Shown here piece by piece: positions 124 to 195 of a DNA stretch of 5,615 bases (position 1 is the stretch's first letter; each line of letters begins with the position of its first letter). The notes under the pieces were generated by a model. That model searched no databases. It saw only the letters and a program-made list of their open reading frames with translations, and was not told where the DNA came from. Source of the DNA: a virus (taxonomy: Duplodnaviria > Heunggongvirae > Uroviricota > Caudoviricetes); the IMG/VR virus record IMGVR_UViG_2700989509_000032; one strand, 5' to 3'. The position numbers and the translations under genes were made by a program.

Positions 124-195
124 TAAGTCACCTGTTTTGTGTTGTGGTGAGAATATCACCTTTCATCAGGTGGCCAAATTTAGTGTGCCACTACA
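1..195 (-). mobile_element. IS3-family (IS911-like) insertion sequence, left end (terminal inverted repeat plus 5' part of orfA); element continues beyond the window start
   Basis: Read on the minus strand from 195: TGTAGTGGCACACTAAATTTGGCCACCTGATGAAAGGTGATATT..., with a TG terminus and a GGCCACC motif as I recall for IS911-type left ends. The orfA ATG lies 72 bp inside at 123. Terminus position is inferred from recalled IS3-family ends, not verified. Confidence 0.55.

Follow-up and report, generated by a model that had tools for sequence, protein, structure and literature searches.

What is the 165-amino-acid (aa) open reading frame (ORF) whose 3' end meets an IS3-family insertion sequence (IS) in the IMG/VR virus record IMGVR_UViG_2700989509_000032 (Duplodnaviria; Heunggongvirae; Uroviricota; Caudoviricetes), and how did it come about? 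A preliminary description of the window (the whole stretch of DNA analyzed here, 5,615 nucleotides) regarded it as a native gene. The reading favored here, with high confidence, is that an ISEc31-like IS entered the 3' end of a gene B that an 88-bp deletion had already fused to its neighbor, gene A, both lesions being probable steps in the decay of a PICI-type phage satellite, with no rearrangement of the island.

Regarding the IS, the following features can be placed at its end:

1..195, minus strand: left end of an ISEc31-like IS3-family element of 1258 bp full length, within which the window ends
1..123, minus strand: first 41 codons of the transposase gene orfA (Pfam HTH_Tnp_1, E=3.5e-4 on the 41-aa fragment)
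166..195, minus strand: IS-encoded tail of the chimeric ORF, CSGTLNLAT at 169..195 followed by TGA at 166..168 (translation, comparison with native B)
170..195, minus strand: IRL, the left terminal inverted repeat, with 195 as its outermost base (alignment to the right end of this IS copy in assembly L003)
196..199, no strand: one copy of a 4-bp target-site duplication, GTAA on the plus and TTAC on the minus strand, the second copy lying beyond the far IS end

From 195, the minus strand runs TGTAGTGGCACACTAAATTTGGCCACC... (at greater length TGTAGTGGCACACTAAATTTGGCCACCTGATGAAAGG...) and then reaches the orfA ATG at 123..121. Matches covering at least 80% of the stretch 1..195 occur in 2282 records of complete E. 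coli genomes (at 99% or more in 936), and among the matches listed all stop at base 195. More than 900 complete E. coli genomes contain the identical 195 bp, the genes there being annotated as 'IS3 family transposase'. A megablast search with bases 1..700 against 5426 complete E. coli genomes gave a clean split at 195/196: many E. coli chromosomes carry 100% matches to 196..700 that begin exactly at 196, and no record in this set joins 1..195 with 196..700. The IS boundary at 195/196 is exact, far beyond chance, and the terminus thus lies at base 195 and not at or before 165, i.e., inside the ORF at 166..663, as the preliminary description had proposed. Its further claim that the final residues and the stop are IS-encoded is borne out by the codon phase (...GAG ACG CGT TAC / TGT AGT GGC ACA CTA AAT TTG GCC ACC TGA), in which the last native codon, that of Y156, ends at the boundary and the product ends ...AETRY/CSGTLNLAT. 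Comparison with intact homologues gives the extent of the loss: the 77-aa protein B ends in RRKFTEDVSHA and not in CSGTLNLAT, so that 11 native residues have been swapped for 9 IS-coded ones, the IS sitting 36 bp upstream of the native B stop codon.

The complete IS, 1258 bp long, is present in E. coli E2863 (L002) and, at the window site itself, in L003 (LM996456.1, 10469..11726). Its ends are of the TG...CA type (TGTAGTGG...CCACTACA), with the terminal 8/8 bases identical in the L003 copy and a TTGGCCAC block further in that is common to left and right. In that copy, the 103-aa OrfA has a Pfam match to HTH_Tnp_1 and the 248-aa OrfB matches to HTH_21, rve, rve_2, and rve_3, while an A6G-type frameshift motif (AAAAAAG) is found at IS nucleotide 333, and the PGAP annotation gives a programmed frameshift. 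Elements of the IS3 family are about 1.2-1.55 kb long and generate target duplications of 3-4 bp, IS911 being the studied model. All sequence-level hallmarks of the family can be found here, namely inverted repeats, orfA/orfB, frameshift motif, a 3-4 bp duplication, length, and copy number. Near-full-length relatives occur in 2407 of the 5426 complete E. coli genomes, at up to 26 matching places per genome, and another copy (L002) shows an apparent 3-bp duplication, AGC. PGAP gives the copy at the window site only the generic name 'IS3 family transposase'; distant blastn aligns it over its full length with PGAP-labelled ISEc31-family copies at 91.8-92.8% nucleotide identity, compared with about 64% for IS911/ISEc52. 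Only 3 of its 1258 bases differ from those of another copy and, as the genes downstream are intact as well, the insertion looks recent.

The upstream remainder of the ORF is itself composite, and its parts are as follows:

166..663, minus strand: 165-aa chimeric ORF, A(1-94)::B(5-66)::9 IS-coded residues; the exact protein occurs on 35 contigs
391..663, minus strand: gene A part, codons 1-91 of a 121-aa gene, identical to A of EC11 (WP_001723121.1)
382..392, no strand: 11-bp repeat ATCATCACGCA, the sole remaining copy, at the junction of an 88-bp deletion (alignment to EC11)
196..381, minus strand: gene B part, codons 5-66 of a 77-aa gene (phrog_24341), 100% identical to B of EC11 (WP_001204082.1)

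In the island of EC11 (L001), which has no IS at this site, A (121 aa) and B (77 aa) are annotated as separate genes with an 8-nt overlap (ATGCGTGA), and the same DNA encodes the two genes on more than 1000 E. coli contigs; the view of the 165-aa ORF as a native gene therefore has to be given up. Alignment to EC11, where two copies of the repeat lie 88 bp apart, shows that the window lacks one 11-bp repeat copy together with the intervening 77 bp. On the coding strand the repeat reads TGCGTGATGAT and encodes (L)RDD in A and (M)RDD in B, and since it stands in the same codon phase in both genes, the deletion amounts to an in-frame fusion, which leaves A without its last 27 residues (CCFGTLPEFIELLTSCGYQVIQGGKHA). 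Gene A consists of two tandem copies of a unit of about 55 aa (BLASTP E=4e-6; phrog_340 matches in two stretches) with the pattern FTGxxxVxxENG...LxD...G(S/T)xxxxxEL, and the 66-aa gene C found past the IS (L003 11759..11959) is a third copy of it. The window keeps the first phrog_340-type repeat of A and the first half of the second. The unit split in half by the deletion has homologues in the first repeat and in C, and full-length A is found outside E. coli as well (see below), so that the long form can be taken as ancestral. An adjacent deletion mediated by the IS was considered as the cause of the 88-bp loss and rejected: the loss is 186 bp away from the IS end, has direct repeats on both sides, and also occurs in IS-free alleles.

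These alleles bear on the order of the two events. Exact-sequence look-up finds native A and native B on at least 1000 contigs each, and full-length A also in Salmonella (P0063); for the chimera, the exact protein look-up used an index pointing to 41 blocks of the collection, and covered the 24 blocks whose contigs are longest. A deletion-only protein of 167 aa with the native RRKFTEDVSHA end is present on one ENA metagenome contig (L008); this contig shares 99.6% identity with the window, and its TTAC site is empty. A one-residue variant of the protein (P0046) occurs in an isolate assembly that is also IS-free (GCA_049986065.1, L009). Regarding the converse allele, B with the IS tail and no deletion (75 aa), exact-sequence look-up found none on record. 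With deletion-only alleles recorded and no IS-only allele, the sequences indicate that the 88-bp deletion preceded the IS insertion. Only the exact protein look-up located the deletion allele, and it did so in draft and metagenome assemblies: a 41-nt probe across the deletion junction had no match by megablast in the 5426 complete E. coli genomes, and an exact scan of a one-genome-per-species contig collection for the junction found nothing. Five assemblies agree in the window region at 99.5-100% identity, with identical junctions, and the most parsimonious history would be a slippage deletion between direct repeats, then the IS insertion, then clonal inheritance.

A different origin of the junction has to be considered because IS copies are common points of breakage and mis-joining in short-read contigs, and the contigs behind L006 (ABACOE010000044.1, GCA_018044705.1, which contains the whole window exactly) and L007 indeed terminate within the IS. 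The junction could then be an artefact in which the assembly joined a contig wrongly at a repeated IS. However, the same IRL junction is found in five independent assemblies, three of which (L003, L004 with a contig of 5.5 Mb, and L005) span the whole IS with a matching far junction and the TTAC duplication, and an artefact is accordingly given practically no credence. The far end and the target duplication, which the preliminary description had expected outside the window, could be read in these longer assemblies: the occupied site in L003 runs ...GCGTTAC/TGTAG..IS..CTACA/TTACAGAAG, and the IS-free sites of EC11, L008, and L009 read GCGTTACAGAAG, so that comparison of occupied and empty sites yields a 4-bp TTAC target duplication. 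By blastn, the identity between the islands of L003 and EC11 is 98.0% in the 5.4 kb aligned upstream and 98.7% in the 3.5 kb aligned downstream, both flank alignments overlapping by exactly the four duplicated bases. Past the IS follow the 66-aa gene C, a DUF4222 gene (96 aa), a D5-type primase gene (601 aa), ProQ/FinO, and PerC; gene lengths downstream in the IS carrier equal those of EC11, and the 66-, 96-, and 601-aa genes are intact. The IS is a simple insertion in operon orientation without rearrangement, and the suggestion that it marks a rearrangement boundary of the island fails on this collinearity and on the TTAC duplication.

The explanation first advanced for this locus was that the IS clips a native 165-aa gene at its C-terminus, that a toxic product was thereby counter-selected, and that the IS forms the edge of a rearranged island. 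It is right in placing the IS end truly inside the ORF and in having the native tail replaced, and the presence of an Icd-like cell-division-inhibitor gene two genes upstream in the same operon (the order being Icd-like gene, then the 74-aa gene U, then the chimera) makes harmful products conceivable. Against it, relatives have two genes in place of a native 165-aa gene, the island is collinear across an IS with a 4-bp duplication, and intact A and B predominate among the alleles, which speaks against a generally toxic product. No sign of a toxin emerged from the searches either: A, B, and the natural A-B fusion described below have no toxin, toxin-antitoxin (TA) or defence family match and no credible match among PDB sequences, all PHROG matches of A and B are of 'unknown function', and searches of Pfam (including E<=10), PADLOC, and PDB sequences with A, B, U, C (66 aa), and the natural fusion returned nothing usable. 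Selection against a toxic product thus loses its footing, and the explanation as a whole is judged very improbable.

A-B fusions are not confined to the allele in the window. A polyG tract before the A stop and B start (EC11, about 6199-6210) varies in length among relatives, and it lies in the 88 bp that are absent from the window between 381 and 393. With six Gs, A (121 aa) and B (77 aa) are separate, and nine Gs give a 122-aa A; five Gs result in a 196-aa A-B fusion (P0034, 30 contigs) and eight in a 197-aa fusion that is also found in E. albertii (P0039). This variation could reflect slippage-driven switching or mere homopolymer mutation. Two more in-frame deletion fusions of A to B with different junctions, RLR/Y/GAPED (P0050, 156 aa; L010 1501..1971) and RLR/EFSG (P0053, 158 aa; L011 134..610), are on record, and all three A::B deletions begin at A codons 92-94. 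In addition, fusions of a U-like protein to B, of 154-155 aa, make up phrog_2512.

As natural full-length A-B fusions exist, fusion need not inactivate the protein, and B-domain function could persist in the chimera. It can be argued from these recurrent fusions (the polyG variants of 196 and 197 aa, P0050, P0053, and the U-like::B proteins of phrog_2512) that the module tolerates or even benefits from fusion, and that the chimera is a functional, possibly selected neo-fusion to which the IS tail does no harm. However, the 88-bp deletion halves the second repeat of A, deletion alleles are rare (0 of 5426 complete E. coli genomes), P0050 and P0053 are known from a single metagenome contig each, and a search at the protein level finds only in-frame fusions, which is an ascertainment bias; a functional neo-fusion is therefore considered improbable. 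A further form, in which A and B are a switchable pair toggled by the polyG tract between coupled proteins (G6) and a fusion (G5, G8), with the 165-aa chimera active, is given equally little chance. Were it true, polyG slippage, frameshifting or deletions such as that in the window would yield functional A::B fusions that alter the interplay between satellite and helper. Independently of this, the repeated fusing and splitting of the module through polyG variation, microhomology deletions, and modular repeats may be of interest to researchers working on satellites.

The preferred account, an IS insertion into an already fused gene, can be set out as a series of steps. The 88-bp deletion, by replication slippage or microhomology recombination between the 11-bp repeats, fused A in frame to B, removing the last 27 residues of A including a predicted helix of its second repeat. 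The AlphaFold2 model behind that prediction, made for the natural 196-aa fusion from 49 aligned relatives (pLDDT 47, pTM 0.28), is too poor to assign roles to the lost segments, and only its secondary-structure pattern was used, as a weak hint. The IS then transposed into a TTAC target near the end of B, a gene of the early/replication operon of the satellite, by copy-out/paste-in via a circular intermediate if it behaves as the IS911 model of its family does, and the last 11 residues of B gave way to the 9 that the IS encodes. The chimera itself is probably a defective by-product and not a working protein.

With regard to the operon, the stop codon of B overlaps the start codon of C (ATGCATAA), and the Shine-Dalgarno sequence of C (GGAGG) lies within the tail of B. 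The same overlap together with GGAGG is seen at the stop/start junction of U and A as at that of B and C (direct repeat 656-676 / 873-893). As the IS is inserted 36 bp before the B stop, C would retain its own signals and lose the coupling. The main effect of the IS would thus be to uncouple C from B translationally and to place C, DUF4222, and the primase 1.26 kb farther from the operon promoter, with some polarity. On the operon strand, a consensus scan detected nothing resembling a terminator within the IS, which, with the shared orientation, makes it likely that polarity is partial, and read-through across the IS could keep the downstream genes expressed. Counts in the promoter and terminator scan did not exceed those in shuffled sequence. 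A hybrid promoter that would combine the TTGACC of the right IS end with the flank was also considered, and was rejected because inspection by eye gave no acceptable -10 at 16-18 bp. Both lesions can be viewed as decay steps of the satellite in one E. coli lineage.

The island in which these lesions occurred is represented in the window by the following genes:

4401..5615, minus strand: tyrosine integrase (Phage_integrase)
3050..3247, minus strand: AlpA regulator
2172..2972, minus strand: AntA antirepressor
873..1076, minus strand: Icd-like gene (PGAP), with PHROG matches labelled 'transcriptional repressor'

In L003, the integrase gene is located beside tRNA-Thr(CGT) (thrW), downstream of proBA. 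All elements of a PICI-type layout are present, i.e., int at one end, AlpA, AntA, a D5_N/Pox_D5 primase, ProQ, PerC, and a tRNA-adjacent site, and a full set of virion genes is lacking, so that by its gene content the island is classed as a PICI-type phage satellite next to thrW. Its mobility is probably impaired. A second IS, of the IS66 family (TnpA, TnpB, DDE transposase), occupies L003 17873..20185 in the same island, which is consistent with an element that accumulates IS copies.

Several other stretches of the island can be described. The intergenic region at 3330..3460, between alpA and a 267-aa ORF, has a 2 x 33-bp tandem repeat and four palindromic ACCCTnAGGGT copies, which look like operator sites for a regulator. 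That ORF (3475..4278, minus strand) lies between the integrase gene and alpA, and its middle part is coiled-coil-like (EKENAELRARIEQLEQE); neither Pfam nor PHROG nor PADLOC gives a match to it, and it is conserved in EC11 as a hypothetical protein of 265 aa. At 1226..2179 on the minus strand there is a 317-aa ORF with no family match, with a YlcI/YnfO-family gene (phrog_949) on the opposite strand (1275..1454, plus); over this stretch EC11 annotates a partial pseudogene only, and a 435-aa ORF is called in L008 and L009. The AntA-family protein has, in its C-terminal half (residues 171-255), a weak match to the PADLOC candidate model PDC-S22 (E=2.9e-9).

For annotation, it follows that the '165-aa hypothetical protein' in the deposits of this lineage (e.g., EEW8780929.1) is a chimera of two genes with an IS-coded tail, and entries of this type should be taken neither as members of a protein family nor as a truncated native gene. 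Biologically, a PICI-type satellite has here suffered two lesions in succession in its replication-proximal operon, the usual route of decay or fixation in a host lineage.

The event is an ordinary one, the decay of a mobile element. The 88-bp loss resembles other slippage or microhomology deletions in that one repeat copy and the intervening 77 bp are gone and a single copy is left at the junction; it differs from a generic slippage deletion in that the repeat codes for (L/M)RDD in two overlapping genes and an in-frame fusion results. The IS is similar to ISEc31 and IS911 in its TG...CA ends, its HTH-containing orfA and DDE/rve-containing orfB, its A AAA AAG motif for -1 frameshifting, its length of 1258 bp, its 3-4 bp target duplications, and its many copies per genome. 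Its identity to PGAP-labelled ISEc31 copies, through which the likeness is drawn, is only about 92-93%, and it is more distant from IS911/ISEc52 (about 64% identity). Regarding the island, EcCIMP1 is found between proA and yagU and carries an integrase, AlpA, an antirepressor, a primase, and PerC (PMC11773190; PMC6092414). The island in the window shares with EcCIMP1, EcCICFT073, and EcCIEDL933 an int gene by proA/thrW, AlpA, an antirepressor, a D5-type primase, and a PerC-family gene (PMC11773190, PMC6092414), and with E. coli PICIs the small ORFs of unknown function between alpA and the primase gene. What sets it apart from those PICIs is the 88-bp deletion together with two ISs, one of the IS3 family and, farther along, one of the IS66 family.
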